Shown one piece after another: positions 9,848 through 60,923 of a stretch of DNA of 62,155 nt. Every line of letters starts with the position of its first letter. Within the stretch, counting starts at the first letter, position 1. Made by a program: the position numbers and the translations under genes. Below the pieces are notes generated by a model. It was not told the DNA's origin and ran no database searches. It was given only the letters and a program-made list of their open reading frames with translations. The stretch is from a bacterium (GTDB lineage: Bacteria; Patescibacteriota; Minisyncoccia; Phycocordibacterales; VMGT01), in assembly GCA_030697645.1 (NCBI GenBank), contig JAUYPI010000009.1:1-62155 (forward strand), written 5' to 3'.

Positions 9848-9928
9848 TGGAAAGTAGAAAGTGGAGGGTAGAAAGTAGTTTTTGTGTTTTCGACTCCCCA
9901 CTTTCTACCCTCCACTTTCTACTTTCCA
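9848..9928. repeat. 29-bp perfect inverted repeat (word family GGAAAGTAGAAAGTGG), copy A1
   Basis: Arms at 9848-9876 and 9900-9928 are exact complements. It ends 3 nt before the rpmH ATG. Confidence 0.9.
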
Positions 9929-9931
9929 AAT

Positions 9932-10066
9932 ATGAAAGGCACCTATCAACCAAAACGACGCAAACGAGCGCGCACGCATGGATTTCGCGCACGCAGCAGC
10001 ACACCCGGAGGCAGAGCGGTTTTGGTGCGGCGTCGGCGTAAGGGGCGGGCAAGGGTTGCGGTGTAG
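9932..10066 (+). CDS. rpmH: 50S ribosomal protein L34
   Basis: [21 protein letters not shown]..., 44 aa. The longer track ORF from 9884 reads through the hairpin. Confidence 0.95.
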
Positions 10067-10119
10067 AGAGTGGAAAGTAGGATTACGTTCAACCCCTACT
10101 TTCTACCCTCTACTTTCTC
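10067..10119. repeat. imperfect hairpin of the same word family, copy A2
   Basis: GAGAGTGGAAAGTAGG ... CCTACTTTCTACCCTCTACTTTC, filling the rpmH-rnpA spacer. Confidence 0.75.
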
Positions 10120-10126
10120 GTCGTCC

Positions 10127-10462
10127 ATGCTTCCAAAAAAACACCGGCTTACCAGAGCGCAGGTTGCGGAGATTGTGAGGCGTGGGACGGCCTTCCACTC
10201 ACCGCATCTCACCCTACGCGTTTTACCGTCCCCTGACGGCTCCTACCGCTTTGGTTTTGCGGCCGGTAAAAAGGTCTCACGAGGTGCAGTTGGTCGCAAT
10301 CGGCTGCGCCGCCGCGGTTACGGAGCGCTTGAGCGCCTGCTCCCCGCTTCCCCGCCGCGTCTTGAGGGCATTTTTTTCTTTAAGCCCGGCTCTCTTGCGC
10401 TCACGCCGAGCGAGCTCAACGTGGAAATAGAGTCTCTTCTTAAGCGAATACTGTCGCGGTAG
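10127..10462 (+). CDS. rnpA: RNase P protein component
   Basis: MLPKKHRLTRAQ... and GKKVSRGAVGRNRLRRR. Position after rpmH. Confidence 0.9.
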   Translation: MLPKKHRLTRAQVAEIVRRGTAFHSPHLTLRVLPSPDGSYRFGFAAGKKVSRGAVGRNRLRRRGYGALERLLPASPPRLEGIFFFKPGSLALTPSELNVEIESLLKRILSR

Positions 10463-10486
10463 GCCGACTTCTGCTAGACTGTTTAC

Positions 10487-11227
10487 ATGATAGGATCGCT
10501 CTTTAATACCCTCCTCTACCAACCTTTCTACAACGGGTTGGTTTTTTTGATTTCCGTTATCCCCGGGGGCGATGTTGGCGTCGCAGTTATCGTACTTACT
10601 ATCGCAGTAAAACTCGGCCTGTTTTCACTCTCCTACCGCTCGATTATATCGCAACAACGCTTGAAAGAGCTTGGACCGGAGCTCGAGCGCATTAAGACGC
10701 AGTTTAAGAACGATAAACAACGCCAGGCCATGGAGACCATGGCGCTCTATCGGCGGGAAGGCGTCAATCCTCTCTCGACGATTCTCTCACTCCTCCTCCA
10801 GATACCGGTGGTATTGGCGCTTTACTTCGTTTTTGTCAAGGCTGGGCTCCCCGCGATCAATCACGAGCTCCTCTACGACTTCCTTGCCGAGCCGGGGGTT
10901 ATTTCCCTCTCGCTCCTCGGGCTTATTGATATTTCAAAAAAAAGCGTTATACTTGCCGTGCTTGCTGGAGCGACGCAGTACCTCCAGGCGCGGCTTATGA
11001 CGCCGCAGGCACCACAGGGCGAGCCGCGGGATGGGGAGCGCTCGCTCAAAGACGAGCTCGCGCGGAGTCTCCAGCTTCAGATGAAGTATGTGTTTCCCGC
11101 CCTCATTGGTTTTTTTGCATATAATTTCGGCGGTGCCGTCGCGCTCTATTTTGCGGCGAGCAACGCGTTCGCCATCGGGCAGGAGATGTATGTGAAGCGG
11201 GCTCGGGAACGGGAAAGTGGAAAGTAG
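10487..11227 (+). CDS. yidC: membrane protein insertase YidC/Oxa1 family (short form)
   Basis: 246 aa and multi-TM. Contains KELGPELERIKTQFKNDKQRQAMETMALYRREGVNP. Position after rnpA. Confidence 0.9.
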   Translation: MIGSLFNTLLYQPFYNGLVFLISVIPGGDVGVAVIVLTIAVKLGLFSLSYRSIISQQRLKELGPELERIKTQFKNDKQRQAMETMALYRREGVNPLSTILSLLLQIPVVLALYFVFVKAGLPAINHELLYDFLAEPGVISLSLLGLIDISKKSVILAVLAGATQYLQARLMTPQAPQGEPRDGERSLKDELARSLQLQMKYVFPALIGFFAYNFGGAVALYFAASNAFAIGQEMYVKRARERESGK

Positions 11228-11277
11228 AAAGTGGAGAGTAGTTGCAGTAGTTTCCACCTTCTACTTTCCACCCTCTA
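11212..11277. repeat. imperfect hairpin of the same word family, copy A3 (left arm overlaps the yidC stop)
   Basis: GGAAAGTGGAAAGTAGAAAGTGGAGAGTAG / TAGTTTCCACCTTCTACTTTCCACCCTCTA. The yidC C-terminus RERESGK-stop is encoded by the left arm. Confidence 0.8.
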
Positions 11278-11290
11278 TTCTTCAAACAAC

Positions 11291-11773
11291 ATGGACCCTC
11301 AAACAATCAAACAACTCATCGAAGAGGTCCTCGGGAAACTCTGTGTTTCCTGCGATTCTGTCGAGCTCACAGAAGACGCCGCGACGAAACGGCGGCAATT
11401 TTCAATAACGAGCAGCGACTCAAATCTCTTGATTGGCACTAGGGGCGAGAACCTCGCGGCGTTGAACCACATTGTCCGGGCGCTTGCGCGTCGGCATGGC
11501 GGCGACGAAGACGACGAGCTCAACTTTTCGATAGACGTCAATAATTATCGCCGCTCTCGCGTGGAGGCGGTGCTTACCGAGGCGCGCGAGGCGGCGGAGC
11601 GCGCTAGACTCTTCTTGCGTCCAATCGAACTCTCCCCCATGAGCTCCTACGAGCGTCTGGTCGTCCACTCGTTCTTTAGCGACGTACCAGATGTCACCAC
11701 CGAGTCATTCGGCGAAGGCAGGTTTCGGCGAGTGGTGGTGAAGTGCGCGACAGGCGAGGAGAGTAATGGCTAA
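11291..11773 (+). CDS. jag: Jag/KhpB-like KH-R3H RNA-binding protein
   Basis: Position after yidC. KH-like LLIGTRGENLAALNHIV and R3H-like YERLVVHSFF. ATG at 11291 lies just after hairpin A3. Confidence 0.85.
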   Translation: MDPQTIKQLIEEVLGKLCVSCDSVELTEDAATKRRQFSITSSDSNLLIGTRGENLAALNHIVRALARRHGGDEDDELNFSIDVNNYRRSRVEAVLTEAREAAERARLFLRPIELSPMSSYERLVVHSFFSDVPDVTTESFGEGRFRRVVVKCATGEESNG

Positions 11774-11838
11774 TAGGTTGCGTATAGCGGAACTGACTTC
11801 GGAGCACTTTTATAGACGGTGTTAGAACCTGCTTTGTT

Positions 11839-12147
11839 TTAAATCGGAAAGAAATACGGATATCCATATTGGCGTGTAATAAGAAATATTACGCCCCCTG
11901 TAATGGCAATCGCGGCCAACCAGAAGTAAACTTTTTTTGTCTGCCTCTCGAAGATGAAGTAAGCCAATCCTAAAATTATTGCTGTTAGGAAAAACCATTG
12001 GTTTATTTCACTGAACTTCATCTGCGCGGTTCGTATGTGATACCACGGAATCCCTGCAAAAATGAAAAAACAGAAAGCAACTAACGCCAAAAAAGAGGCA
12101 CCCGTTTTTTTATTCCACGAACGCGGCGAAAGCAAAAGGAATCTCAT
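11839..12147 (-). CDS. small integral membrane protein, AT-richer than its neighbours
   Basis: 102 aa with three hydrophobic segments. Abuts tRNA-Gly. Confidence 0.55.
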   Translation of the reverse strand: MRFLLLSPRSWNKKTGASFLALVAFCFFIFAGIPWYHIRTAQMKFSEINQWFFLTAIILGLAYFIFERQTKKVYFWLAAIAITGGVIFLITRQYGYPYFFPI

Positions 12148-12151
12148 ATTG

Positions 12152-12222
12152 TGCGGGCAGGGAGAATCGAACTCCCATCTACTGCTTGGAAGGCAGTCAT
12201 TTTGCCACTAAACTATGCCCGC
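12152..12222 (-). tRNA. tRNA-Gly (anticodon TCC), no encoded CCA
   Basis: Hand-folded cloverleaf: acceptor GCGGGCA/TGCCCGC, anticodon loop CTTCCAA, T-loop TTCGATT. Confidence 0.9.
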
Positions 12223-12287
12223 ATTGTAGGGCGTGCGTCTCCGGAGCTTCAATGTGGCGTGGTTGCGGTTGAGCCATACTGCCCCCA

Positions 12288-13520
12288 CTACATACTCGCC
12301 CGCAGCACCTCCTCTGGCGTCGTGATGCCGGCGTAGACCTTTTTGAGTCCGTCTTCGCGAAGCGTCTTGAGGCCCTTCTTGTGCGCCACCTCTTCGATTT
12401 CTGCGGCTGAGGCGTTATTGATTATCATGCGCTGGAGCTCGCCATCGACATCAAGCACCTCGAAGATACCTACACGGCTGCTGTAGCCGGTATCGAAGCA
12501 CACCTCACAGCCAGCGCCGTGGACGATACTCGCGCCCCGATCGATCCCCAAAGAGCTTCGTATTTCCTCAGATGGTTGGTACGCCTCGCGGCACGACCCG
12601 CAGATTTTTTTTACCAGGCGCTGCCCAATGACGCCGGAGAGCGCATACGCAACCATATCCCGCTCTATTTTCATGTCTATAAGCCGCGTGATGGTGCCTA
12701 TGGCCGAGTTCGCATGGAGCGTCGAGAGGAGGAGCCGACCAGTGAGCGATGCGCGGATTGCATTTTCCGCGGTTTCATAATCGCGGATTTCGCCGACCAT
12801 GATGCTGTCCGGGTCTTGGCGTAGGATTGAGCGTATGCCGACAGCAAAGGTGTAGCCCGTGTGTGGCGAGACCTGGCTCTGGCGTACAAAATCGAGATAG
12901 TATTCGACTGGATCCTCGAGTGTGATAATCGTACGGCTCTCCCCCGCGAGCTCACGGAGGATTGAATAGAGCGTCGTTGTCTTTCCGGTACCCGCCGGAC
13001 CCGAGACGAGTACCATGCCGTGCGATCGGCGGGAGATTGATCGCACCAGGCCGAGATCCTCAGCACCGAAGCCAAGATCCGAGAGGTTGAGGAACGACTC
13101 AACGCGATTGAGAAGTCGGAGCACCACCGCCTCGCCATGGACCGTCGGGAAGAACGAGGAGCGAACCGCAAGCACGCGAGCTCCTGAGGCCACCGCGGCA
13201 CTTGTGCTGGACGGTGCCACCCATGCGAAGTAGCCCTCTTGGGGTGTCGCACGGTGCGCGATATCAAGACCACTGAGCACTTTGAGGTGGGAGATAAAAG
13301 TATCATATTCGTCTTGCGGCCGTCTTGTCCATACATGGAGCACACCGTCAATGCGGAAGCGAATCAAGAGATGTTGCTCTGTTGGGTCGATGTGGACGTC
13401 CGAAGCCTTATTCATGACCGCCTCTGCGATCATCGCGTCTTTGAGCTCCTCCGCCGCAGAAAACGTTCGCGCGTCCACGCCTTGATTTTTTTGTTTTTCG
13501 TCTGAAGTGGTTTTTGCCAT
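12288..13520 (-). CDS. GspE/PilB-family type II/IV secretion ATPase
   Basis: Walker A VSGPAGTGKTTTLYS, Walker B IMVGEIRD, His box STLHANSA, tetra-Cys CGSC...CEVC. Confidence 0.9.
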   Translation of the reverse strand: MAKTTSDEKQKNQGVDARTFSAAEELKDAMIAEAVMNKASDVHIDPTEQHLLIRFRIDGVLHVWTRRPQDEYDTFISHLKVLSGLDIAHRATPQEGYFAWVAPSSTSAAVASGARVLAVRSSFFPTVHGEAVVLRLLNRVESFLNLSDLGFGAEDLGLVRSISRRSHGMVLVSGPAGTGKTTTLYSILRELAGESRTIITLEDPVEYYLDFVRQSQVSPHTGYTFAVGIRSILRQDPDSIMVGEIRDYETAENAIRASLTGRLLLSTLHANSAIGTITRLIDMKIERDMVAYALSGVIGQRLVKKICGSCREAYQPSEEIRSSLGIDRGASIVHGAGCEVCFDTGYSSRVGIFEVLDVDGELQRMIINNASAAEIEEVAHKKGLKTLREDGLKKVYAGITTPEEVLRASM

Positions 13521-13649
13521 ACAATATGCGCCCCACTTTTTTAGATATGACTGGATTACTGTGCGGCGAAAAGTGGAACACTCGCCTTTATTGCATCATA
13601 GCATACCGCGCGGTTCTCGCGCGCGATTTAAGGCACACCGTATGCATTT

Positions 13650-13720
13650 TCGGGGTGCCGAGACTCGAACTCGGACTAAATCCTCCCAAAGGACTCGTGC
13701 TACCATTACACTACACCCCG
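13650..13720 (-). tRNA. tRNA-Pro (anticodon TGG), no encoded CCA
   Basis: Acceptor CGGGGTG/CACCCCG, anticodon loop TTTGGGA, T-loop TTCGAGT. Confidence 0.9.
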
Positions 13721-14141: not shown

Positions 14142-14363
14142 AAGTTTTTGGTTTTTAAGACGTAGCGATGTTTCTTAAGAAACATCCAGAGTCTTTTATG
14201 AGCGACTTTTTAAAACCTATATTTTGAGCCGTTTTTATGAGTGCAGTCCTTTTTCAATTAGATATTAAGGACGTCCTTTATACACATGTCCCCAACGTTA
14301 TCCACAATCCCTTACTTTTAAGCCATTTTTCTTAGGGGCGCTACTTGGGCAGACCTACCCGTC

Positions 14364-15536: not shown

Positions 15537-17045
15537 ATGGAATTGCGCACAAATTCAAAGATGCCGCAAAAAGTTGTAGCCGTATCGGAGACGCTCACGA
15601 AAGCCGGTTTCGAGGCATACCTTATCGGCGGGTGCGTTCGGGATCTCATCATGGGCAAGGTACCCAAGGATTGGGACTTGACGACAAGCGCTAGGCCGGA
15701 ACAAATACTTGAGCTCTTCCCCGGTTCATTTTACGAAAACGACTTCGGCACCGTCGGTGTTGTCTTTGAAAATCTAAAGGACATAAACATAAAGGACAAA
15801 TATATAAAGGACATAACTACAGAAGTAATTGAAGTGACTACCTACCGATTAGAGGCAAAGTATTCTGACTCGCGTCACCCAGACTCGGTTACATTTAGCG
15901 ATACACTTGCGGATGACCTCAAGAGACGTGACTTTACCGTAAACGCAATCGCCTACGACGTTTCTCGTGAAAACACCATAGACTTATTTCACGGCCAAGA
16001 GGACATCAAAGACCGCGTAATACGAGCGGTTGGCGATCCTGGTGAGCGTTTTTCTGAAGATGCCTTACGTATGATGCGTGCGGTGCGCTTCGCCTGTGAG
16101 CTTGATTTTTCGATTTCACAAGAAACATCCGAAGCTATATGTTTGCACACAAAGAGCTTGCAAAATATAGCGATAGAGCGCGTGCGAGCCGAGCTTATCC
16201 GCATTCTTGAGTCAGATATTCCAATGCGAGGCATAGAATTCCTGCACGAGCTCAAACTCCTCCCATATATCATCCCCGAGCTTGAGCGAGGGATAGGGAT
16301 TGAGCAAAATCAGGCTCATAAGTATGACGTATGGGGGCATAATATACGAACTGCCCAGCACGCTGCAGATAAGGGCTGGGATTTAGACTTGCGTATTGCC
16401 GCCCTATTTCACGATATTGGAAAGCCGTCAACGCGTCGTTTTGCAAAAGAGAGGAACGACTGGACTTTCCACGGGCACGACGTCGTTGGTTCACGAGAAA
16501 CTCGGAAAATCATGGAGCGTCTGAAGTTTCCCGTGAAAACAATCGAAAAAGTATCGAAGCTTGTCCGTTGGCACATGTTTTTCTCTGACCCGGAGAAAGT
16601 AACGCTTTCTGCAGTGCGTAGAATGGTACGCAATGTTGGCGAAGAGAACATATGGGATCTTATGAACCTACGGGCGTGTGACAGGATAGGAACCGGAAGG
16701 CCAAAGGAGCAGCCGTATCGGTTTCGGAAATACAAGTCAATGATCGAGGAAGCACTCCGCAGCCCGACGTCGGTGAAGATGATAGCGATAAATGGTGATA
16801 AAATAATGGAAATCACCGGACTCAAGCCGGGGCATAAGGTCGGGTATATTCTCCACGCCATGCTGGAGGACATACTCGATGACCCAACAAAAAATACACC
16901 GGAGAACCTTAGAAATCGAACGCTGGAGCTCGCGCAGTTGTCAGACGAGGAACTTATGGCGCTCGGCGAGCATGGGCGTAAGCGTAAAGTTTCTCAAGAA
17001 ACAGAGGCGGTTGGTAAGATACGGAAAAAATACTGGGTCGAGTAG
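15537..17045 (+). CDS. cca: CCA-adding enzyme / tRNA nucleotidyltransferase with HD domain
   Basis: GGCVRDLIMGKVPKDWDLTT head motif and HD motif AALFHDIGKP. An alternative ATG is at 15561. Confidence 0.9.
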   Translation: MELRTNSKMPQKVVAVSETLTKAGFEAYLIGGCVRDLIMGKVPKDWDLTTSARPEQILELFPGSFYENDFGTVGVVFENLKDINIKDKYIKDITTEVIEVTTYRLEAKYSDSRHPDSVTFSDTLADDLKRRDFTVNAIAYDVSRENTIDLFHGQEDIKDRVIRAVGDPGERFSEDALRMMRAVRFACELDFSISQETSEAICLHTKSLQNIAIERVRAELIRILESDIPMRGIEFLHELKLLPYIIPELERGIGIEQNQAHKYDVWGHNIRTAQHAADKGWDLDLRIAALFHDIGKPSTRRFAKERNDWTFHGHDVVGSRETRKIMERLKFPVKTIEKVSKLVRWHMFFSDPEKVTLSAVRRMVRNVGEENIWDLMNLRACDRIGTGRPKEQPYRFRKYKSMIEEALRSPTSVKMIAINGDKIMEITGLKPGHKVGYILHAMLEDILDDPTKNTPENLRNRTLELAQLSDEELMALGEHGRKRKVSQETEAVGKIRKKYWVE

Positions 17046-17439
17046 GGTGCTTGTGAATTCACTGGCGTGTGGATTTTTTAGGACTCGTTTGATTTCACGG
17101 GAAACAAATAACCCACTATGTAAGTGGGCAACATAGTGGGCGATTGCTGAAGAATCACCCAGAATAAAATGCTCGGGGCGCGAAAGCGCTAAAATCTATA
17201 AGACGTATAGAAGTTTGGGGCGCTTCGTGCTCGCCAAGATTATCTTATTCCAGACGACCTTCTATGGAGAATATGAAAAGATCTTTTCCTTGGAAGGATC
17301 TGATAGCGTTGTCCTTTTGTAACGCTCTCTGTCCTTTATGATATTTTCTATAAAGGACATTGTAAAGGACATGACTGTGGATAAAAAAGTGTCCTTTAGA
17401 AATTTGATTGTGTCAAGTGCCCACCCACAACCACTCACG

Positions 17440-17600
17440 CCTATTATTTTTGTGTTCGTGCTGGAAGTGTTTGGAAATGGCGTCGCCTCGCTTGACGCAA
17501 AACGCAGAACTCGACTTCCCTCGGGGCTCGGCCTCAGACATCTGCATTTTCCTCGGCTCGCCATTTTCTAAACACCTCTCGCAACGCACAAAAATAAAAG
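17440..17600. repeat. long imperfect hairpin element, family F copy 1
   Basis: GTGTTTGGAAATGGCG (17467-17482) pairs with CGCCATTTTCTAAACAC (17559-17575). Outer arms TTATTTTTGTG/CACAAAAATAA. Homologous to 57786-57905. Confidence 0.8.
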
Positions 17601-17631
17601 ACGTGAGCGATTACAACGGGTGTGTGTTTAG

Positions 17632-17880: not shown

Positions 17881-17921
17881 GAGATCAGGTTTCCTGGGGT
17901 TTGTAATTTTCACCCTGTGGA

Positions 17922-20489
17922 TTACGGTGTTGTTGTTGCCGCGGCTCCTCCGGTAACCGAAAGTGTGGTGCGATACTCACCGCGGTTGAGGACGCTGTCG
18001 TAGCCGATGATAAGGAGTTCGTTGTCGCCTTCGAGAGCGCCGGCGTCAGCGGGTATTAAAGAGAACGAGAGGGGAGGGGTCTGTGTGGAGCCGATGAGGG
18101 TGCCGTTGAGGAATACCTCGGCGCGCGCGAGCGTCGATGCTCCAGCACCTGAGACCGTGAACAGTACTCGCTCCGAGGCGTCGTAGGCGCCGGGGTGAAG
18201 TCCTTGTACTTCAAGCTTCGGGGCTTTTTCCTGTATATGGACGTCGTCTTTTTCATTTGGGATAATTTGCGGCGTCTCACGATTGATTTTCTGTCTTTCG
18301 ACCCACACTGCGACTGGCGCTTCCCAGAGGCGATATTGCGGGTCGAGTGTTGGATTTTCCGGCCTCGGCCCGAGGGGGTTTTCGCGGTTTACCCAGTGGA
18401 GAATCGTGTGCGGATCAACGACGACGCGCTCTTCACGGAGCTCTTGGGGAGTAAGGTCGGTCGCGATCTTCCCGGAGATTTTATCGACGACGTACGACAC
18501 GCCACCCTGCCACCGGCCGCGGAGGATCGGCGCTAATTCCAGGCTGTCCGGGAGCGTATGCGGCTTGATGAAGGAGACCTTTTTTTGAGAGACAAGGACC
18601 TTGTTTATGAACTCGTGCCAGAGCGGCGCGACGATAAACCCAGCAACCTTTTTCTCCATCGGTGAATTATCATTGTTTCCTGCCCACGCACCGACCGCGA
18701 TAGTTGGCGTGTAACCCACGATCCATGCGTCGCGGTAGTCGTTCGTGGTTCCGGTCTTTGCCGCGACATCGTAGCCGGGAAAGTAGAGGAACGACTGCTC
18801 GCCGAATGCCGGTGTGCGCGCTTCATTATCGGCGAGAATATTGGTCACGGTCCGCGCAATCTCACTCGGGAGCACACGGAGCGGGCGTGGTGTGTGCTCT
18901 TCAAGCACCGTTCCGTCCGTCCGCACAACCTTAAGGATCGTTGCCGGCGGGACACGCACGCCGTCGTTTGCAAATATTCCATAAGCGCTCGTGAGATCAA
19001 AGAGTGTTACCTCGCCGCCACCAAGAACGAGCGTCAGGCCATAGCGGCGGATGTCTTTGAGAGTAGAGATACCCATGCGCTCCGCGATCTCGAGGGAGTC
19101 CTTGAGTCCGGCAAGGTAGAGTACTTTGACCGCCGGCACATTAATTGATTGCGCGAGGGCGTTTCGGAGCGAGACCGGACCGCGAAAGACATTATCATAG
19201 TTCGTCGGTTTATAGCAGATCGCCCTCGGCGAGATCGGTGAGCCGTCCGGAGTGCACTCAGTCGAGAACTCAGTCTCGAGATCGAAGACTACCGTCTCCG
19301 GCCGGTACCCTTTCATAAACGCGGTGGCGTAGACGAAGGGCTTAAACGCGGAGCCCGGCTGGCGCTCGCCGAGCACGACGTTAAAGTTGCCGTCAATCTC
19401 TTTATCAAAGTAGTCGCGCGAGCCGACCATAGCGAGTATCTCTCCCGTACGCGGATCGAGCGCGATAAGCCCCGCGTTCTCGGCATTGAACTTTTTTTTA
19501 TTCTCAAGCGCGAATTGTTTAACAACACGCTCCGCATCTGTCTGGAGTTTACTATCGAGCGTCGTTACGATCGTGAGCCCGTCGCGTTCGATCGTCTCCC
19601 GTCCGTATTTCTGCTCGAGATACTCCCGCACATACATCACAAAATGCGGCGCTTGGATACTACTCTCGCTCCGTGGCAGAAATGTCGGTTCCTCGGCGAG
19701 TGCGGCGGCGCGTTCTTCTTCCGTAATGAATCCTTCCGCGAGCATTCGTTCGAGGACGAGGCCCTTGCGTGTCTCAAGGGCGTCGCGGTGGTTGCCGTAG
19801 GGGGAGTAGTAGGTTGGCGCCTGCGGGAGCGCAGCGAGATAGCTTGCCTCCGCGAGCGTTACATCGCGGGCGCTCTTCCCGAAAAATTGTTGACTCGCTT
19901 CCTCGACACCATAGACGCTGCCGCCGTAGGGTGCCTCGTTGAGGTAGAGTTCGAGGATACCTTCTTTACTCATCTGCTGCTCCAGCTTCGCTGCGAGGAT
20001 CCACTCTTTAAGCTTGCGTGCCAGGCGCTTCTCACGCGTGAGGATCGAGTTTTTAACCACCTGCTGCGTGATGGTCGAGCCGCCTTGCTCAAATCTGCCA
20101 GAGAGGATGTTTTTCAATGTCGCACGCACGACCGCGAGCGGCCGGATGCCTTTGTGTTCGTAGAACGTTGCATCCTCGATGGCCACGGTTGCATTTTTGA
20201 TGCGGCGTGAAACCTCCTCGATACCGACCACCGTGCGTTTTGTATCGGCGTTGACGTCGAAGAGTAAGATCTTTCCGGTGCGGTCGAAGATTTTCGTAGA
20301 CTGTATGATGCGGCGGTCCTCAAACGCCGAAAAGTCGGGGACAGTGAGCGTGGCGGCCCAGAGGAGCGCCGCGCCCGTCCCCGAGAGAGCGAGGGCGAGT
20401 GTGATCAAAAATACACTTCGCAGAGTGGAGCGGCGCGTTTTATGACCGTCAGTATTACTCATAAAACCCAGTATAGCAGTACGCAGCAT
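17922..20489 (-). CDS. class A penicillin-binding protein (transglycosylase/transpeptidase)
   Basis: GT51 motifs AIEDATFYEHKGI and GGSTITQQVVKN. Transpeptidase motifs SAFKP and KTGTT. N-terminal TM segment. Confidence 0.9.
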   Translation of the reverse strand: MLRTAILGFMSNTDGHKTRRSTLRSVFLITLALALSGTGAALLWAATLTVPDFSAFEDRRIIQSTKIFDRTGKILLFDVNADTKRTVVGIEEVSRRIKNATVAIEDATFYEHKGIRPLAVVRATLKNILSGRFEQGGSTITQQVVKNSILTREKRLARKLKEWILAAKLEQQMSKEGILELYLNEAPYGGSVYGVEEASQQFFGKSARDVTLAEASYLAALPQAPTYYSPYGNHRDALETRKGLVLERMLAEGFITEEERAAALAEEPTFLPRSESSIQAPHFVMYVREYLEQKYGRETIERDGLTIVTTLDSKLQTDAERVVKQFALENKKKFNAENAGLIALDPRTGEILAMVGSRDYFDKEIDGNFNVVLGERQPGSAFKPFVYATAFMKGYRPETVVFDLETEFSTECTPDGSPISPRAICYKPTNYDNVFRGPVSLRNALAQSINVPAVKVLYLAGLKDSLEIAERMGISTLKDIRRYGLTLVLGGGEVTLFDLTSAYGIFANDGVRVPPATILKVVRTDGTVLEEHTPRPLRVLPSEIARTVTNILADNEARTPAFGEQSFLYFPGYDVAAKTGTTNDYRDAWIVGYTPTIAVGAWAGNNDNSPMEKKVAGFIVAPLWHEFINKVLVSQKKVSFIKPHTLPDSLELAPILRGRWQGGVSYVVDKISGKIATDLTPQELREERVVVDPHTILHWVNRENPLGPRPENPTLDPQYRLWEAPVAVWVERQKINRETPQIIPNEKDDVHIQEKAPKLEVQGLHPGAYDASERVLFTVSGAGASTLARAEVFLNGTLIGSTQTPPLSFSLIPADAGALEGDNELLIIGYDSVLNRGEYRTTLSVTGGAAATTTP

Positions 20490-47618: not shown

Positions 47619-47698
47619 AATCGCTTGACGAAAACAGGATGGCGGTTACGCTAAGGTTGTACCATTGTTTAACCTCAAGTGTTTTAACCTCAAGACTC

Positions 47699-47917: not shown

Positions 47918-48049
47918 GAAATCGCAAAACAAGCGGAGCAGCGAAAGCGCCCATGAGGAGAATACTCTTCATGAGCGCGGGATGTGGGGACGTTGGCGCG
48001 CGTTCAAAATACGTGTGCTTCTATCTTGACGTACTTGTTGTTGAATTTG

Positions 48050-48262: not shown

Positions 48263-48332
48263 GTCGTTTCCTTCTGTGTTTGGTAGCTCTGTCTGACTTA
48301 TCTCCGGGTATATTAATTCCCCAAAGGGCAAC

Positions 48333-49043: not shown

Positions 49044-49086
49044 CATGCACGGGGCGCGCGATATATACTATGGCCATATACAGGAT

Positions 49087-49200
49087 AAATTTTCAAATTT
49101 TCAATATGCGTCCGCGTCCTATTTCTAACGGGATGAACCAATTTTCAAACGACGAACGTCGTCGTGTTTGGAAATTGAAAATTGGAAATTGGTAATTTCG
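49087..49200. repeat. TTTCAA/TTGGAAA-word palindromic element, family E copy 3
   Basis: Apical hairpin CAATTTTCAAACGACGA-acg-TCGTCGTGTTTGGAAATTG. Outer pairing AATTTTCAAT/ATTGAAAATT. Confidence 0.75.
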
Positions 49201-51355: not shown

Positions 51356-53731
51356 ATGGTACATGCGATTAATTTTAACGAAGAGCGCGTAACCCACTTT
51401 GCAAAGACCGACGCGCGCGGGAAGCACATCCCCTTCGGCATCAAGGCAAAGGACAGGACCCGGCATGTCTATGTGATTGGTAAGACCGGCATGGGAAAGT
51501 CGACCTTGCTTGAGAACATGGCGGTGCAGGATATCAAGAACGGCGAGGGGTTTGCGTTCGTTGACCCGCACGGCAAATCAGCCGACCTCCTCCTCGACTA
51601 CATCCCTCCCGAGCGCGTCAAAGACGTGCTCTACTTTGCCCCCTTTGACCTTGAGTATCCCATCGCGTTTAACGTGATGGAGGACGTCGGCTACGACAAG
51701 CGGCATCTTGTGGTAAGCGGGCTCATGGCCGCGTTTAAGAAAATCTGGGTGGATGTGTGGAGCGCGCGCATGGAGTACATTCTGCAGAACACGCTCTTGG
51801 CGCTCCTCGAGTACCCGGGGGCGACTCTGCTTGATGTGAACCGCATGTATACGGACAAGCGGTTCCGCGAAAAAGTAGTGGGAAGTCACGGGAGCGTGCG
51901 CGAGGATCGCGTGGAGGGAATGGTTAAAGATCCGCTGGTGAAGTCATTCTGGCTCGATGAGTATGCGACCTACACCGACCGCTACACGCAGGAAGCAACG
52001 CCCGCGATCCAGAACAAGATCGGCCAGTTCACCGGCAACCCTCTGATCCGCAACATTGTAGGACAGAGCACGTCGACGTTCGATCTCAGGACCATGCTCG
52101 ACGAGCGCAAGATTCTTATAATTAATCTCTCGAAGGGCAAAATCGGCGAGGGAAACGCGAACCTGCTTGGCAGCATGATCATCACGAAGCTCTATCTTGC
52201 GGCGCTCTCGAGGGCGGATATAGCGGATCGCGAGATGACGAAGCTCCCCAATTTCTATCTCTATGTTGATGAGTTTCAGTCGTTTGCGAACGAGAGCTTT
52301 GCGGATATTCTCTCCGAGGCGCGCAAGTACAAGCTGAACCTCACCATGGCGCACCAGTATGTGGAGCAGATGAGCGAGGAGGTGCGGGCGGCGGTGTTCG
52401 GCAATGTGGGCACGATGATCGTGTTCCGCATCGGCGCCTTTGACGCCGAGGTGCTCGAGAAAGAGTTTGCGCCGCAGTTTACGGCAGAAGACTTGGTAAA
52501 CCTCGGCTTCGCGCAGATTTATCTCCGGCTGATGATCGATGGTGTATCGTCGCAGCCGTTCTCTGCGGTCACTTTGCCGCCGATCGCGCCGCCGGAGCAC
52601 TCTCTGCGGGAGCAGGTGATCGAGAATTCGCGCGCGCAGTTTGCGCGGCCGCGCTCTGGAGTTGAGGCCGAAGTGCGCGAGCGCTACGAGGGCCAGCAGC
52701 GGGATCGCGAGCGCGTAGCAGCGGAGCAGTCCGGGCGTGCGCGAGCGGAGAACGTCGGCGCGGGGGAGCGCTCCGAGCGGCCGCAGGGGGGCGGACGCGG
52801 GTTTGAGGGCGGCGCGACACGGCGAGCGGTACGTATGTCTCATGACCGACCTCCGACATATGCCCGCAGCGCTCGCGAGGAGTACCGTTTGCCGACGCGT
52901 CGTGCTCCAGACGCCGTATATTCGCGGGATAGCGGCGAAGAACCGCGGCATGAGAGAGTTGGCGAGAGAGAGCGAACACCACAGGGCGAGCCGCCGGGCG
53001 GCGAGCGGAGAGCGACTTTGCAGCTGGAGCGTGAGGCGTCGCAGGACTTTTCTCGTGAGTCACACCAGAGCGATCGCCCTCGGCAGCCGCATGGCGAGCC
53101 GTTTCGTGAGGTGCGGGATGAGAGGCAGCGCACCGCGCGCGAGGAGAGTTCCTCGCCGCGCGCTCCCGTGCGCGGCGACGGACGTCCCCGAGAATATCGA
53201 CCGTCTGAGCACCGAGAAGAACCGGAGGCGCACCGTCCCTTCTCCGGCGCGCTTCGCGACGCGCTGCGGCGCGCGCAGGAGCGAGAGGTGCCTCAACAAG
53301 GTGGCGACGCGCGGCGCGGCGAGGCCGAGCAGGGTCCTTCCGTCAGGATGCGTGAAGATGGTATGCATCGCGATCGCGTCCAGCACCTTCCGCGGAAGGT
53401 GCTGGACGATCGCGTGGCCGGAGCTCCGGCCACGGCACTGGGTAATATATCACCGCCGACGCACCCCATCACCCCCCGTTTTGACCGCTCGGCACGGCCC
53501 GAGACGCTCTCAGGCCTGCGTGATGCGCTCGCAAAGGCGACGGGGAGTAGCAGCGCGCGAGAGCCGAGCGCGGGCTCGAGCGCCCCAAGCGTCGAGAAAG
53601 AATCGATGCGCGAGCAGGATCAAAAATCAGAAAGAAAAGAGGAACAAAAGCGCGAGGAACCGCCGCAGACCCGGGTTCCGAGTGAAATCCCCGAGGAAGA
53701 ACTTAAAAAAATACTTGACGTGGGGAAGTGA
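51356..53731 (+). CDS. soluble TraD/VirD4-like (type IV coupling protein family) P-loop ATPase with a long low-complexity tail
   Basis: Walker A VIGKTGMGKSTLLENM, Walker B FYLYVDEFQSF, MAHQYVEQM. No N-terminal TM segment. The last ~330 aa are R/E/G/P-rich. Confidence 0.8.
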   Translation: MVHAINFNEERVTHFAKTDARGKHIPFGIKAKDRTRHVYVIGKTGMGKSTLLENMAVQDIKNGEGFAFVDPHGKSADLLLDYIPPERVKDVLYFAPFDLEYPIAFNVMEDVGYDKRHLVVSGLMAAFKKIWVDVWSARMEYILQNTLLALLEYPGATLLDVNRMYTDKRFREKVVGSHGSVREDRVEGMVKDPLVKSFWLDEYATYTDRYTQEATPAIQNKIGQFTGNPLIRNIVGQSTSTFDLRTMLDERKILIINLSKGKIGEGNANLLGSMIITKLYLAALSRADIADREMTKLPNFYLYVDEFQSFANESFADILSEARKYKLNLTMAHQYVEQMSEEVRAAVFGNVGTMIVFRIGAFDAEVLEKEFAPQFTAEDLVNLGFAQIYLRLMIDGVSSQPFSAVTLPPIAPPEHSLREQVIENSRAQFARPRSGVEAEVRERYEGQQRDRERVAAEQSGRARAENVGAGERSERPQGGGRGFEGGATRRAVRMSHDRPPTYARSAREEYRLPTRRAPDAVYSRDSGEEPRHERVGERERTPQGEPPGGERRATLQLEREASQDFSRESHQSDRPRQPHGEPFREVRDERQRTAREESSSPRAPVRGDGRPREYRPSEHREEPEAHRPFSGALRDALRRAQEREVPQQGGDARRGEAEQGPSVRMREDGMHRDRVQHLPRKVLDDRVAGAPATALGNISPPTHPITPRFDRSARPETLSGLRDALAKATGSSSAREPSAGSSAPSVEKESMREQDQKSERKEEQKREEPPQTRVPSEIPEEELKKILDVGK
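53707..53731 (+). repeat. direct repeat, left copy (last codons and stop of the ATPase gene)
   Basis: AAAAATACTTGACGTGGGGAAGTGA, identical to 54353-54377. Confidence 0.9.
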
Positions 53732-54352: not shown

Positions 54353-54377
54353 AAAAATACTTGACGTGGGGAAGTGA
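54353..54377 (+). repeat. direct repeat, right copy
   Basis: Exact 25-nt copy of 53707-53731. Looser similarity extends about 10 nt upstream (AGAACT-Y-AAAAA). Confidence 0.9.
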
Positions 54378-57734: not shown

Positions 57735-57748
57735 GGGGTGGTGGAGGG

Positions 57749-57926
57749 CAACCGCTCACTCCTTCAAATTTCACGCTCGAGCTTCGGTGTTTGGAAATGA
57801 TAGTCGCCTCATCGACGAAAAACGCATAACTCGCCTGCAGGCTCAAACAGATGCGTTTTTCTATTCGGCTCCTTCATTTCCTAAACACCTCTCGCTATGC
57901 GTGAAATTTGAAGGAGTGAGCGGTTG
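57749..57926. repeat. 178-nt hairpin element with 28-bp perfect terminal inverted repeats, family F copy 2
   Basis: CAACCGCTCACTCCTTCAAATTTCACGC (57749-57776) is the exact complement of 57899-57926. The inner part is homologous to 17467-17583. Confidence 0.9.
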
Positions 57927-57969
57927 CGGTGTAGGAGTATGTTTAAGTGAGATGCTATTTCACGCCGCT

Positions 57970-60018
57970 ATGTCTTACCTAGACGATCTTAACGCAGCGC
58001 AGCGCGATGCGGTCCTTGCCACTGAAGGACCGCTTCTCGTTGTTGCCGGTGCCGGGGCAGGGAAGACGAAGACGCTCACGTACCGGATACTCCACCTGAT
58101 CGTGACGAAAGGCGTTCGTCCGGAGCACATCCTCGCGATCACGTTTACAAACAAAGCGGCACGCGAGATGCGCGACCGCGTGCACGCTCTACTTGCATCG
58201 GCTGGCGTCCAGTCGGCGATTTCCCACTCTCCAGTTTCTACTTTCCACTCTCCAATCGTTTGCACTTTTCACTCCCTCGCGGTCTTGATGCTCCGCGCGC
58301 ACGGCGCGCGTATCGGCATTCAACGTCGGTTCACGATCCTGGATCGCGCTGACTCGACGAGGGCGATGCGCGAGGCGGTGAAAAGTGCCGGTTTTGATCC
58401 AAAACTCTGGGACCCGGGGAAAATCCTCGGTGCGATCTCGCGGAAGAAGGGCGATGCGCTCTCGCGCGCAGCGTTTTCGGAGATAGCGTCGAGCTACCCC
58501 GAACGCGTCATTGCAGACGTCTGGGAGCGCTATGAGGGTATCCTCGTGCGCGAGCGCGCACTCGACTTCGACGATCTGCTGCTCTCCGCGCTCACACTCC
58601 TCGCTGCCCAGCGCGAGGTGCTCACGCACTACCATGAGCGTTTCCGCTACATACACATAGACGAGTACCAGGATACGAACCGCGTGCAGTACGAACTCTC
58701 GCGTCTCCTCGCCGCGCGCTACCGCAACATTTGCGCCGTGGGCGACAGCGACCAGAGCATCTATTCCTGGCGCGGCGCCGACCTACGGAATCTGCTTGAT
58801 TTCGAGCGCGACTACCCGGAAGCCCGGGTAGTGCTGCTTGAGGAGAATTACCGCTCGACCAAGACCATTCTTGCCGCGGCGAACGACGTGATCAAGAAGA
58901 ACGTGCTGCGGAAAGACAAAACGCTCTACACGCGCAATGCGGACGGGGAGCGGATCGGCATCTCGAGCTGCTACGACGAGGCGCACGAGGCGCGTTTCGT
59001 GGCAGGGACAGCGCACTCGCTCGTCGAGGGCGGCACGGCACCTGAGGAGATCGCGGTGCTCTACCGCACCAATTTTCAGTCGCGCGCGCTTGAGGAGGCG
59101 TTTCTCAACGAGGGTGTTTCCTACCAGGTGGTCGGCGTACGTTTTTTTGAGCGTAAGGAAGTGAAAGATGCGCTCGCGTATGCGAGAGTGGCGTTTGCGA
59201 TTGCGGAGCGGGAGAGAGAGGAGACGGGGAGCGACGGCGAGGACGTCTCGGCGCCGCCCGCGGGCGGCGCCGAGACTCCACAGAGGAGCGTCTCATCACT
59301 CTCTGACCCCGCCCTCGCGAGCGAGCTCGCGCGTATCATCAACGTCCCGCCGCGCGGCATCGGGAGGGCGACGCTCCTCAAACTTTTTGCCGGGCGAGCA
59401 ATTCCCGTCGCCGCGGCGCGCCGCGCCGCGGAGTTTGAGACGCTCCTCAGCGAGCTCGCCTCACGAGCGGCGACCCTGAAGCCCTCGGAGACTGTGCGGC
59501 TCATTGTTGAGAAAACAGGCATGGCGGAGCATTTTCGGGACGGCAGCGAGGAGGGAGCCGAGCGGGAGGCGAACATCCGCGAGCTCGTGACGCTAGCCCT
59601 TAAGTATGACGAGCTCGCGCCGCTTGCGGGCCTCGAGCGGCTCATTGAGGACGCGGTGCTTGTGAGCGACCAAGACACGCTCGAGAGCGCGAAGAGCGCG
59701 GTGCGCCTTATGACGGTGCACGCGGCTAAAGGGCTCGAGTTCGACCACGTCTTTATCACCGGCCTCGAGAGTGGGCTTTTTCCGCACGAGCGGAGCGGCG
59801 ATGCGACGGATGACGAGCGCGAGGAGGAGCGGCGGCTTTTTTACGTGGCGCTGACGCGAGCGCGGAAGCGCGTGCACCTCACGTGTGCATCCATTCGTAC
59901 CGTCTTCGGCTCCCGAAACGTCGCGCTCCCGTCAGAATTTCTCGCGGACATCCGTGACGAGCTCCTGGAGGTAGTCGAACCGGCATCACACGGGGATGAA
60001 AAAGTTATACGATTTTAA
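57970..60018 (+). CDS. pcrA: UvrD/PcrA-family ATP-dependent DNA helicase
   Basis: VVAGAGAGKTKTLTYRI, IHIDEYQDTN, VHAAKGLEFDHVFI. Start at MSYLDDLNAAQ; the track ORF is extended through the repeat. Confidence 0.9.
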   Translation: MSYLDDLNAAQRDAVLATEGPLLVVAGAGAGKTKTLTYRILHLIVTKGVRPEHILAITFTNKAAREMRDRVHALLASAGVQSAISHSPVSTFHSPIVCTFHSLAVLMLRAHGARIGIQRRFTILDRADSTRAMREAVKSAGFDPKLWDPGKILGAISRKKGDALSRAAFSEIASSYPERVIADVWERYEGILVRERALDFDDLLLSALTLLAAQREVLTHYHERFRYIHIDEYQDTNRVQYELSRLLAARYRNICAVGDSDQSIYSWRGADLRNLLDFERDYPEARVVLLEENYRSTKTILAAANDVIKKNVLRKDKTLYTRNADGERIGISSCYDEAHEARFVAGTAHSLVEGGTAPEEIAVLYRTNFQSRALEEAFLNEGVSYQVVGVRFFERKEVKDALAYARVAFAIAEREREETGSDGEDVSAPPAGGAETPQRSVSSLSDPALASELARIINVPPRGIGRATLLKLFAGRAIPVAAARRAAEFETLLSELASRAATLKPSETVRLIVEKTGMAEHFRDGSEEGAEREANIRELVTLALKYDELAPLAGLERLIEDAVLVSDQDTLESAKSAVRLMTVHAAKGLEFDHVFITGLESGLFPHERSGDATDDEREEERRLFYVALTRARKRVHLTCASIRTVFGSRNVALPSEFLADIRDELLEVVEPASHGDEKVIRF

Positions 60019-60101
60019 TCATCGACACCAATTTAGAGCGAACGCATAAAATTGGTGTCAATGTGAAGGTGATAGCCTCTACCTTCTCTATTTTTTGGAA
60101 T

Positions 60102-60923
60102 ATGCCAGCACGCCTCGGTCAACACTTTCTTACATCTCGTCGCGCGCTCGCGCGCATTATTGACGCCGCGGAACTCACGAGCGCGGACACGGTGCTCGAG
60201 GTGGGGCCCGGCACCGGCTTTCTCACGGAAGCCCTCCTCGCTCATGCAGGCCGCGTCATCGCGGTCGAAAAAGACGCACGTCTCGTCGCTCGCCTCATCG
60301 AGCGCTTTGCCGCGGAGATTGCCTCCGGCCGTCTCACGCTCGTCCATGCTGATATCCGTTCGTTCGCCCTGTCGAAATACAAGATACAAGATACAAGATA
60401 CAAACTTGTCGCCAACATTCCCTACTACCTTACCGGCCACCTTCTCCGGCAGTTTCTCGGTGCAGAGACGCAACCCTCCCGCATGGTATTGATGCTCCAA
60501 AGAGAAGTCGCCGAGCGCATCGTCGCGCGAGACGGCAAAGAGAGCTTGCTTTCCATTAGCGTAAAGGCATACGGCACGCCGCGGATCGTCGCGCGCACTG
60601 GAGCGGGGGCGTTCTCTCCGCCGCCGAAGGTGGACTCGGCGGTACTTGTCGTTGAAAACATCTCGCGGCATTTTTTCGATGAGTACACAAAAAATGTTCA
60701 ACACTCGGCGTTGAACACAATAGATGCTTGCAGCGTAGAAGGCCGTTTTTTCGCTGTTGTCCGCGCTGGTTTCGCGCACAAGCGAAAGCTCCTCGCGGGG
60801 AATCTAAAGCCGCTTATTCCCAATGCGCGAGAGGCGCTTGATGCCCTTGGTATTAACCCCCGCGCCCGGGCGGAAAATCTTACGCTCGCCGACTGGCGCG
60901 CTCTCGCCACGCACGTTTGTTGA
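60102..60923 (+). CDS. rsmA: 16S rRNA (adenine1518/1519-N6)-dimethyltransferase
   Basis: LGQHFL, VLEVGPGTGFLTEAL, VANIPYY. Confidence 0.9.
   Translation: MPARLGQHFLTSRRALARIIDAAELTSADTVLEVGPGTGFLTEALLAHAGRVIAVEKDARLVARLIERFAAEIASGRLTLVHADIRSFALSKYKIQDTRYKLVANIPYYLTGHLLRQFLGAETQPSRMVLMLQREVAERIVARDGKESLLSISVKAYGTPRIVARTGAGAFSPPPKVDSAVLVVENISRHFFDEYTKNVQHSALNTIDACSVEGRFFAVVRAGFAHKRKLLAGNLKPLIPNAREALDALGINPRARAENLTLADWRALATHVC

Follow-up and report, generated by a model that had tools for sequence, protein, structure and literature searches.

Palindromic and heptamer-array repeats in the spacers, RNase P RNA gene and protein-coding genes of a Paceibacteria contig

Bacteria of the candidate phyla radiation (CPR) have tiny genomes that are thought to be strongly streamlined, and yet a contig from one of them, JAUYPI010000009.1, carries hairpin-forming repeats not only in its spacers but also inside the gene of a ribozyme and those of six essential enzymes. 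What are these repeats, and how could they have come to lie in such places? Here, we analyzed the whole contig of 62,155 nt (GC 0.56), hereafter called the window, in which the original prediction had distinguished at least five families of AT-rich hairpin elements and had likened their behavior to that of the Rickettsia palindromic elements (RPE). We favor, at a probability of about 55%, the explanation that they form a class of non-autonomous, mostly AT-rich palindromic and heptamer-array repeats that are copied between loci with their arms kept complementary and that are tolerated at permissive sites. The host is an uncultured member of the Paceibacteria (Parcubacteria), within the CPR, and the closest matches of its NusA protein in 185,579 species genomes are metagenome-assembled genomes (MAGs) of Kaiser-, Taylor- and Adlerbacteria, at 62-64% identity.

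Hairpins and heptamer arrays in the window

An ungapped inverted-repeat scan returned 16 hairpins with a score of at least 14, whereas 20 dinucleotide shuffles made locally, in 200-nt blocks, averaged 0.2 and never held more than 1, which is an 80-fold excess; nine hairpins scored at least 16 and three at least 20, scores that no shuffle reached. The words from which the elements had been said to be built are likewise over-represented relative to the mean of 100 dinucleotide shuffles, 8- to 500-fold for GGAAAGTAG (7 copies vs 0.35 expected), CGTGTTTGG (4 vs 0.52), GTGTTTGGAAAT (5 vs 0.01), TAAAGGACA (7 vs 0.19) and GTTCAACAC (4 vs 0.30), with TTCCAAA at 20 copies against 7.7. The AT-rich hairpin elements of the original prediction are thus real, and the suspicion that their words might not exceed what composition predicts does not hold within the window. 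Summed over the list of elements (table 1), about 2.2 kb, or some 3.5% of the 62 kb, is palindromic or heptamer repeat DNA.

The words themselves turn out to be degenerate tandem heptanucleotide arrays, a feature that had been missed. Among the 45 non-overlapping arrays returned by Tandem Repeats Finder, 16 have a period of 7 (11 arrays) or 14 (5 arrays), 7 being the modal period, and self-identity pooled over 26 hairpin arms is 0.59 at both lag 7 and lag 14, against 0.32 in shuffled arms and 0.23-0.39 at other lags. The units include GAAAGTA, ACTTTCT, TTGGAAA, CAATTTC, GAAGTTA, CTAAAAG, ACCTAAA, AAGCGTA, ATACAAG and CCACTCT, besides units of 14 nt, and the majority of the arrays are paired with their own inverted copy, so that hairpins result. 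The GC content of these heptamer hairpins is 0.25-0.46, compared with 0.56 for the window, and RNAfold folds the spacer elements at predicted energies of -26 to -65 kcal/mol (-51 for 9845-9931, -65 for 42122-42264, -32 for 49080-49200 and, on the sense strand, -52 for 23190-23366).

Seen in this way, the multi-copy families that had been described stand, but their division into five is better replaced by a unified scheme. Three hairpins, A1 to A3, lie in one operon and have stretches of 21-25 nt in common at 95-96% identity (24 of 25 nt between A1 and A3). Of the three E elements, E1 and E2 show 84% identity along 76 nt, asymmetric non-repetitive apex included, E3 shares the 17-mer CGTCGTGTTTGGAAATT, and E1 is oriented opposite to E2 and E3 relative to transcription; the end of ruvB, with its final codons and stop (23351), falls within E1, and yebC (23155) follows ~39 nt downstream of the element. 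The two F elements, with predicted folds of -86 and -105 kcal/mol, have terminal inverted repeats (29/29 in F2, 22/26 in F1) and, at ~190 nt, lack heptamer periodicity. The 12-mer GTGTTTGGAAAT connects families E and F, and a palindrome in the murC gene of a related species reads CAACACCGAGTGTTTGGAAA, so that a single core, TTC(C)AAACAC-loop-GTGTTTG(G)AA, is common to E, F and the GTTCAACAC palindrome. The elements draw repeatedly on two building blocks: this small hairpin core, closed by a triloop, and degenerate tandem heptamer arrays, usually in inverted pairs that form stems of 20-60 bp. The TAAAGGACA words, found in cca and at 17325-17400, form a set separate from the other families, one of whose hairpins holds a perfect DnaA box in its loop.

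The three solitary examples that had been singled out fared differently: the hairpin at 42987-43046 is confirmed, with an arm of CTAAAAG units, the sequence at 6985-7018 is a direct array that has no inverted partner, and the hairpin at 26620-26700 precedes the likely start of recJ (26791) by ~90 nt rather than lying in frame within that gene. Other identities can be set aside. The heptamer hairpins do not qualify as intrinsic terminators, given their AT-rich stems of 20-60 bp and missing U tract; a scan for the terminator consensus placed canonical sites elsewhere (25541-25565, 35925-35948 and others) and, among the elements, flagged only the E1 apex. A small open reading frame (ORF) on the minus strand of the F elements (a Shine-Dalgarno (SD)-like GAGAGGTG followed by ATG) was rejected because the F1 and F2 peptides are unconserved though the DNA is conserved, and the matches of the long hairpins to microRNA families in Rfam are meaningless.

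Could the elements simply be chance low-complexity sequence or an artefact of assembly? AT-rich DNA of low complexity is error-prone in short-read assembly, and hairpins systematically break such assemblies: the Logan k-mer contigs of the window's clone stop within hairpins at 2443, 9934, 25757, 42153/42156 and 49135. Yet this explanation is highly improbable. An NCBI MAG contig, JAXMIX010000156.1, is 99.99% identical to the window over 30765-52122, the sole differences in these 21 kb being a G-run length change with an adjacent single-nucleotide polymorphism (SNP) at 34261-34271 and a SNP at 35441, and the Logan contigs, which come from two sequencing runs, match it at 100% over 2443-13701, 9934-11948, 25757-38722, 36039-42156 and 42153-49135. 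Together, the MAG and Logan contigs reproduce A1-A3, E2, E3, the hairpin between nusA and ppa, the murC palindromes and the P17 insert of the RNase P RNA gene at 99.99-100% identity (A1 in contig L212, the P17 insert without a difference in L214), so that most elements have an identical sequence in three independent assemblies and chimeric assembly does not account for the AT-rich segments. The excess of hairpins and words over shuffles, the reading frames kept through all coding inserts and the related elements in other samples and species speak against an artefact as well.

Elements inside rnpB and protein-coding genes

The RNase P RNA gene, rnpB, retains the conserved P4 strands and lacks P14, and a promoter-like site lies 9 nt upstream of it (25605-25632). 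As had been claimed, two elements lie inside it: the cmscan alignment places one heptamer hairpin at the apex of helix P8 and another at that of P17. These inserts are paralogous (24 of 26 nt identical), and the strand of rnpB folds better than its complement in both (-14.1 vs -11.0 for P8, -32.6 vs -27.3 for P17). Owing to the inserts and the missing P14, the gene scores below the Rfam gathering score of 100, so that at the gathering threshold Rfam reports only tRNAs in the window and rnpB appears with E-value thresholds. A search by P4 motif found no rnpB orthologue in the loci of 80 relatives, the inserts being defined only against the Rfam consensus.

Within protein-coding genes, the inserts add whole codons relative to homologues (30-135 nt), and the ORFs stay open through all of them. 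In pcrA, 13 extra residues precede the conserved TFHS motif when compared with PDB 2pjr; the underlying array is similar to the reverse arm of family A and, in part, repeats the TFHS motif next to it. In rsmA, the palindrome corresponds to a gap in Bacillus subtilis KsgA (PDB 6ifs) and matches its murC counterpart, which is read in the same frame, at 27 of 28 nt. The in-frame inserts announced for recJ, pcrA and rsmA are thus confirmed by alignments with orthologues or structures, as are those at the yidC and nusA C-termini by the hairpins themselves, whose arms hold the rpmH stop, the final codons of yidC (with their stop) and of ruvB, and the final 23 of nusA. The NusA tail is 52 aa long here, against a median of 34.5 aa in relatives, among which it varies widely.

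In three of these genes, the claim needs qualification. The recJ insert, missing from 8 orthologues, is a different hairpin from the one proposed, of 135 nt, with normal GC, terminal inverted repeats matching at 17 of 18 nt (27465-27482 / 27571-27588) and no second copy in the window. The cca insert, missing from 5 orthologues, is in frame as predicted but is a direct tandem repeat of 15 nt instead of a palindrome. The murC palindromes are indeed in frame, in a variable loop, where they give no net insertion relative to the MurC structures in the PDB and ~11-13 extra residues relative to MurC of distant Paceibacteria. Since these cca, recJ and MurC orthologues and the PcrA and KsgA structures are without the inserts, the view that the inserts are ancestral conserved sequence finds no support.

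Table 1. Positions of the repeat elements and of rnpB in the window (strand left empty for elements listed without one)
Feature	Position	Strand	Description
Small palindrome	137-164		Diverged AACAC-triloop-GTGTT palindrome; reverse orientation
ACCTAAA array	6985-7018	+	Direct array (ACCTAAA)x3; between convergent xerC/D and dnaN
Degenerate heptamer array	9733-9770	+	Beside dnaA start; 67% identical to the rnpB inserts
A1 hairpin	9848-9928		Arms 29/29 complementary, each (GAAAGTA)x4
A2 hairpin	10063-10118		Family A; rpmH stop (10064-10066) in left arm
A3 hairpin	11208-11280		Family A; left arm encodes last yidC codons and stop (11225-11227); jag ATG at 11291
cca insert	15775-15816	+	15-nt direct tandem repeat x2.8 (TAAAGGACA words); 11 aa, LKDINIKDKYI
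Two TAAAGGACA hairpins	17325-17400		Inverted TAAAGGACA / TGTCCTTTA words
F1	17425-17616		Rod-like palindrome, ~190 nt; inner stem GTGTTTGGAAAT / ATTTTCTAAACAC; homologous to F2
AAGCGTA array	23160-23188	+	(AAGCGTA)x3.4; directly upstream of yebC
E1 hairpin	23190-23366		TTCCAAN heptamer arms; apex AAACACG-CACGT-CGTGTTT
F-like palindrome	24385-24535		Possible third, diverged member; upstream of ruvB
rnpB	25641-26102	+	Bacterial type A; RF00010, 86.3 bits, E 1e-25, model positions 1-367
rnpB P8 hairpin	25711-25772	+	CAATTTC / GAAGTTA units; replaces P8 apex as a 42-nt insertion
rnpB P17 hairpin	25913-25982	+	Heptamer hairpin; ~60-nt insert at P16/P17 apex
recJ-upstream hairpin	26618-26702		14-nt units (GTCAAAGGTTAAAT x2.2)
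recJ insert	27457-27591	+	135-nt hairpin (45 aa), -57 kcal/mol, normal GC
murC palindromes	36958-37028	+	Adjacent, in frame: ATGTTAAACAT-CGG-ATGTCTAACAT and TGTTCAACAC-TCG-GTGTTGAACA
nusA-ppa hairpin	40705-40836		A-rich heptamers, GC 0.25; one arm is the last 23 nusA aa and stop
E2 hairpin	42124-42262		~60 bp, -65 kcal/mol
M23-clpP hairpin	42985-43048		(CTAAAAG)x4.9 arm; between M23 peptidase gene and clpP
E3 hairpin	49087-49200		3' arm (TTGGAAA)x4.3, ending in TGGTAATTT
F2	57745-57930		Palindrome, ~186 nt; just upstream of pcrA; terminator-like apex
pcrA insert	58216-58254	+	13 aa, AISHSPVSTFHSP; heptamer array (CCACTCT x4.4)
rsmA array	60377-60403	+	Perfect (ATACAAG)x3.9 in variable loop, in frame; adds only ~2 aa
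rsmA palindrome	60690-60719	+	Copy of the GTTCAACAC palindrome; 10 aa in frame, KNVQHSALNT

Distribution among loci and possible roles near start codons

The comparison with relatives shows that the coding and spacer elements are lineage-specific additions, in that occupancy of orthologous sites differs. The yidC-jag spacer, which holds A3 in the window, has a diverged family-A hairpin in one relative (L086) and none in two others (L087, and L085, in which jag overlaps yidC), the YidC proteins of the three being 84-87% identical. As separate observations on these loci, a PemK toxin gene is inserted between rnpA and yidC in L085 (485-886), and an octamer array, (CTCCCCCC)x3, lies inside rnpA in L086 (~55-80). 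In a related species whose MurC is 75% identical (JGI samples Ga0114945 and others; loci including L221, L290 and L291), E2 is absent upstream of nusA and the nusA-ppa spacer carries other heptamers (L290). The window's families are found in that species at other loci: a CTAAAAG hairpin downstream of ppa shares 29 of 31 nt with the M23-clpP element of the window, A1 is matched at 30 of 32 nt by a family-A array that follows a gene near tsf (L291), further heptamer hairpins lie between rpsB and tsf as well as after tsf, and two E-like hairpins lie upstream of rplJ and between rplJ and rplL (L221), the second ending ~10 nt before the rplL ATG.

Protein loops tell a similar story. The MurD-like ligase of L290 (2338-3966) contains, besides four perfect heptamer arrays at loops (AGATACA, CAATTTT, AAACCAG and ATTGGAA), an in-frame hairpin insert of 39 aa whose cores are AACATCCGGTGTT/AACACCGGATGTT, and its orthologue in L293 (3628-5112, 72% identical) has different heptamers, AACCGGG and ATACAAA, at two of those loops. 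The ATACAAG unit arrayed in rsmA is also arrayed in a Mur ligase gene of L290, and the murC loop bears palindromes in all three species (the window's, that of L290 and that of L293), with different stems around the same apex. In 80 loci of more distant relatives, heptamer arrays are rarer (4.7 per 62 kb vs 16 in the window), but some units recur: AAGTAGA in L002, AAAACCT, the heptamer of 6985-7018, as arrays and hairpins in L020, L036 and L047, and CTAAAAG in L021 and L065; an element similar to the nusA-ppa hairpin is present in L027.

How specific are these sequences? An 18-mer of family E gave only 4 chance matches in the 185,579 species genomes, and of the 75 matches of an E-family 17-mer in JGI metagenomes one is real, in L221. 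By contrast, (GAAAGTA)x3 occurs in more than 120 contigs across many phyla, so that the GAAAGTA heptamer is not lineage-specific and its count is that expected from a general excess of heptamer repeats. As an observation in its own right, Acidobacteria, Blastocatellales and a Heliobacteriaceae MAG contain perfect (GAAAGTA)n facing inverted (TACTTTC)n, with loops of 45-90 nt and folding energies of -55 to -70, so that the architecture of A1 recurs in unrelated phyla (L121 1290-1520 and 5560-5720; L162 1300-1460; L117 4300-4453).

The small AACAC-triloop-GTGTT palindrome bears the mark of compensatory change, as a test for covariation in the hairpins proposed with the original prediction brought out. 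When its 8 copies are aligned on the triloop, 89.8% of the pairs are standard, against 71.8% after shuffling (0 of 500 shuffles as high) and 27-49% in slid registers; 7 of 11 pairs change on both sides, and the covariation score is 0.526 compared with 0.221. Similarly, the E apex CCAAACACGAC/GTCGTGTTTGG of the window becomes CCAGACACGAC/GTCGTGTCTGG in L221. Copies of the small palindrome occur in both orientations (the first vs the second palindrome of L293, and 137-164 in the window).

These patterns suggest how a class of non-autonomous repeats could arise. Template switching, gene conversion or an enzyme encoded outside the window would copy units, in one orientation or the other, to further sites; arms would grow by slipped-strand duplication in a 7-nt register, as the periodicity at lags 7 and 14 suggests; and some process would keep the arms complementary, a pattern visible in the fully paired arms of A1 and in the compensatory changes. 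Copies that survive would be those at permissive places, and the ones we see lie in spacers, at the apices of the peripheral rnpB helices P8 and P17, in variable surface loops and in C-terminal tails. Mobility is here deduced from the distribution of the elements.

Several observations weigh against this explanation. Each family has only 2-4 copies in 62 kb, the scanned ORFs of the window hold no mobilizing gene, and no convincing target-site duplication was seen by eye at the E and F elements or the recJ insert. Among the four assemblies of the window's clone there are 2 SNPs and one G-run indel, all outside the elements, and no polymorphism in copy number or presence; three population samples of a relative, nearly identical to one another, show 4 SNPs and no change in array length, so that slippage is not fast. 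That arrays recur at equivalent protein loops of two species, and a hairpin upstream of nusA in several distant relatives, could mean functional selection instead of neutral tolerance, the covariation of a DNA palindrome may stem from copying itself, without proving selection for an RNA hairpin, and the F elements and the TAAAGGACA set, which have no heptamer periodicity, may be unrelated things.

Alternatively, the elements could be mobile elements of the type of REPINs (hairpins made of repetitive extragenic palindromic (REP) doublets) or miniature inverted-repeat transposable elements (MITEs), in which a hairpin-recognizing enzyme with its gene elsewhere in the genome, for instance a Y1 HUH transposase such as a REP-associated tyrosine transposase (RAYT) or one of IS200/IS605 type, binds the AACAC-loop-GTGTT core and the heptamers are secondary. 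The conservation of the core hairpin across families and species amid variable, covarying outer stems would fit such an enzyme, as would the copies in both orientations, the same families at different loci in two species, the terminal inverted repeats of F2 and of the recJ insert, and the k-mer contig ends at 9934, 25757, 42153/42156 and 49135, which are expected for multi-copy or palindromic DNA. Nevertheless, we consider this alternative rather unlikely: the scanned ORFs of the window yielded no domain of a transposase, RAYT or reverse transcriptase, in line with the initial remark that the window has no transposase, target-site duplications are lacking at the ends inspected, the elements vary far more in length and sequence than REPIN or MITE families do, the E 18-mer found nothing beyond chance among species representatives, and pure heptamer arrays devoid of the core (in rsmA, pcrA and the MurD-like loops) are hard to derive from transposition of a defined unit. 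A broader version, in which a clade-wide system propagates hairpins by enzymatic copying of the AACAC-triloop-GTGTT core while heptamers accrete on both arms, is unlikely too, but if it were true, it would be continually remodeling RNase P RNA, MurC, the MurD-like ligase, RecJ, PcrA, RsmA and Cca, and its co-option may have put stable hairpins, perhaps with -10 elements or processing sites, directly upstream of start codons in a genome with leaderless, SD-less gene expression.

This last point raises the question of regulatory function. Six hairpins end 1-20 nt upstream of a start codon: A1, in the divergent dnaA-rpmH spacer, 3 nt before rpmH (ATG at 9932), A2 8 nt before rnpA (10127), A3 ~10-20 nt before jag, E2 1 nt before nusA (42122), the other arm of the nusA-ppa hairpin 10 nt before ppa (40696) and E3 6 nt before the ATG of a 151-aa gene at 49204. 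The original prediction was therefore right to place hairpins close to starts devoid of an SD sequence, but the lack of SD is general, with an SD-like motif at 3 of the 42 starts examined, and a link between missing SD and hairpins was rejected, nearly all genes of the window being without SD. Instead, a TAnnnT hexamer ends 4-10 nt upstream of 20 of 41 confirmed starts, compared with a background of 5.7%, and 8 of these 20 genes have the form TGnTAnnnT (TGCTAnnnT-N6-8-ATG); examples are the starts at 10487, 20521, 35889 (minus strand), 36272, 38724 (minus strand), 46044 and 51356. This placement suggests widespread leaderless transcripts, and promoters of leaderless type would explain the genome-wide lack of SD, which leaves nothing specific to hairpins.

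It is in this setting that the elements could be read as selected cis-acting RNA structures, such as processing sites for RNase III or other nucleases, 5' stabilizers, attenuators or insulators, whose 3' arms may carry -10-like hexamers. Besides the six hairpins near start codons and the one between rplJ and rplL in L221, such a role would fit a genome without SD in which about half of the confirmed starts follow TAnnnT and 5 of the 6 hairpin-preceded genes have this hexamer in or just after the 3' arm, although the latter is weak evidence in AT-rich sequence, where TAnnnT is common. The nusA leader, on the minus strand, is a case in point: a promoter-like TTGACA-17-TGnTACACT (42330-42302) and an attenuator-like terminator, TGTCCGCGAAGAGCGGACATTTCTTT (42290-42272), precede E2, which would thus lie in a transcribed leader, between that terminator and the ATG; a counterpart of the terminator is kept upstream of nusA in four distant relatives (L028, L034, L050 and L055), and many distant relatives have some long hairpin there. 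The sense strand, moreover, folds better through G-U pairs in 4 of the 5 strand-asymmetric elements (E1, E3 and the rnpB P8 and P17 inserts, not the nusA-ppa hairpin).

Against this, perfect palindromes are uninformative as to strand, A1-A3 and E2 folding equally on both; short spacers force any insert near a start codon; two close relatives do without the yidC-jag hairpin, and L290 without E2; and like elements occur in both orientations inside coding regions and rnpB, where such roles would be senseless. We regard selected cis-acting structures, which would give each cistron of a genome with leaderless or SD-less initiation its own 5' end near the AUG, as quite an unlikely explanation of the elements. 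A class of copied and tolerated repeats would still, where transcribed, fold into very stable hairpins, often at most 10 nt 5' of a start codon, so that secondary use as a processing site, insulator or promoter carrier is possible. If the hairpins were processing or promoter modules of leaderless genes, this would bear on SD-less translation within operons.

The genes around the elements were mapped from NCBIfam, Pfam and database gene calls, which bear out the gene names given initially. Their order is pnp, rpsO, xerC/D, dnaN, dnaA, rpmH-rnpA-yidC-jag, a pilB-like gene, four tRNAs, cca, PBP1A and tyrS, then ruvC, yebC, ruvB, rnpB, recJ, mazE/doc, comEC, murC, tig, ppa and nusA, and finally clpP, an M23 peptidase gene, a dksA-like gene, yifB, an rsmI-like gene, a TraD-like ATPase gene, pcrA and rsmA. 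Other features of the window were noted along the way. DnaA boxes (TTATCCACA, at most 1 mismatch) number 16, against 5.5 expected, and cluster in the dnaN-dnaA spacer (8148-8460, 30% GC), which is likely oriC; further boxes lie at 14278-14306, 17376-17384 and 17916-17924, and the cumulative GC skew has its minimum near 15-16 kb, away from dnaA. Between a sigma-like/HTH gene and pnp, a perfect 17-bp hairpin, TAGGACTTACGCGTTTG, with a 27-nt loop (2412-2472) is not built from heptamers. An exact direct repeat of 25 nt, AAAAATACTTGACGTGGGGAAGTGA, occurs at 53707-53731, at the 3' end of the TraD-like gene, and 646 nt downstream at 54353-54377, and three tandem units of ~268 nt (61157-62153; 351-378-nt spacing, 64-81% identity) inside the last unannotated ORFs are probably a repeated protein domain.

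Relation to known repeat systems

The comparison with RPE that had been drawn at the outset is a fair one. RPE, reportedly described by Ogata and colleagues in 2000, are about 100-150 bp long, with family consensus sequences, and in-frame palindromes are their hallmark. As in RPE, the window has palindromes without a transposase in spacers, in a stable RNA gene and in frame at permissive positions of essential genes, in multi-copy families that recur elsewhere in relatives; unlike RPE, they range from 28 to ~190 nt, are mostly made of heptamer arms, and are conserved between copies only in short cores or words. The host lineage being unrelated, we do not claim membership.

The short tandemly repeated repetitive (STRR) heptamers of cyanobacteria are at least as close a precedent. 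Their units include CCCCAGT, TTGGTCA and CAACAGT, and Vioque is said to have found them in 1997 inside rnpB of heterocyst-forming cyanobacteria, the helix concerned being P12. Both sets of elements consist of tandem 7-nt units, mostly in operon spacers, form long hairpins when arrays are inverted, and extend the apex of a peripheral helix of RNase P RNA. The units here are AT-rich instead (GAAAGTA, TTGGAAA, CTAAAAG, ACCTAAA, ATACAAG), occupy P8 and P17 instead of P12, lie also in frame in essential genes, and are tied to a small palindromic core, in a Paceibacteria host. With other units and a non-cyanobacterial host, they are an analogue of STRR rather than a member.

Other systems resemble the elements in part. 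REP sequences, bacterial interspersed mosaic elements (BIMEs) and REPINs are extragenic, depend on a single-copy RAYT gene and are transcribed within mRNAs; they resemble the elements in being dispersed short imperfect palindromes with a conserved core whose inverted pairs form larger hairpins, and differ in that copies here also lie in murC, rsmA, recJ and rnpB, with no RAYT in the scanned ORFs of the window. The terminal inverted repeats of F1, F2 and the recJ insert recall MITEs, with no insertion sequence in the window and no direct duplications seen by eye at element ends. Intervening sequences of 23S rRNA and the Correia elements of Neisseria are hairpins in stable RNAs or mRNA leaders that RNase III can cleave; the hairpin extension of a stable-RNA helix or a leader is a shared trait and suggests a similar fate for the rnpB and leader hairpins, although the two are unrelated in both sequence and architecture. 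Many bacteria have an excess of heptamer simple repeats, and the GGGAATC repeats of Xanthomonas and GGGGAYT repeats of Nostoc are intergenic, over-represented and sometimes arranged as inverted stem-loop pairs, slippage having been proposed as their origin (PMC4692102). Unlike the elements of the window, these are G-rich, quadruplex-forming and not reported in ORFs or rnpB (PMC4692102).

Full-text literature searches found no description of heptanucleotide or palindromic repeats in Patescibacteria/CPR, in agreement with what the original prediction had supposed for such a lineage. In practical terms, elements of this kind affect annotation, binning and structure modeling, as they lengthen protein loops and push rnpB below the Rfam gathering score. 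More broadly, they suggest that selfish or self-generating repeats persist even in streamlined genomes, and they offer a second, independent lineage in which to address why STRR repeats are heptamers and enter rnpB and how RPE come to lie in frame. What appears new is that STRR-like and RPE-like behavior are combined in a streamlined CPR genome.

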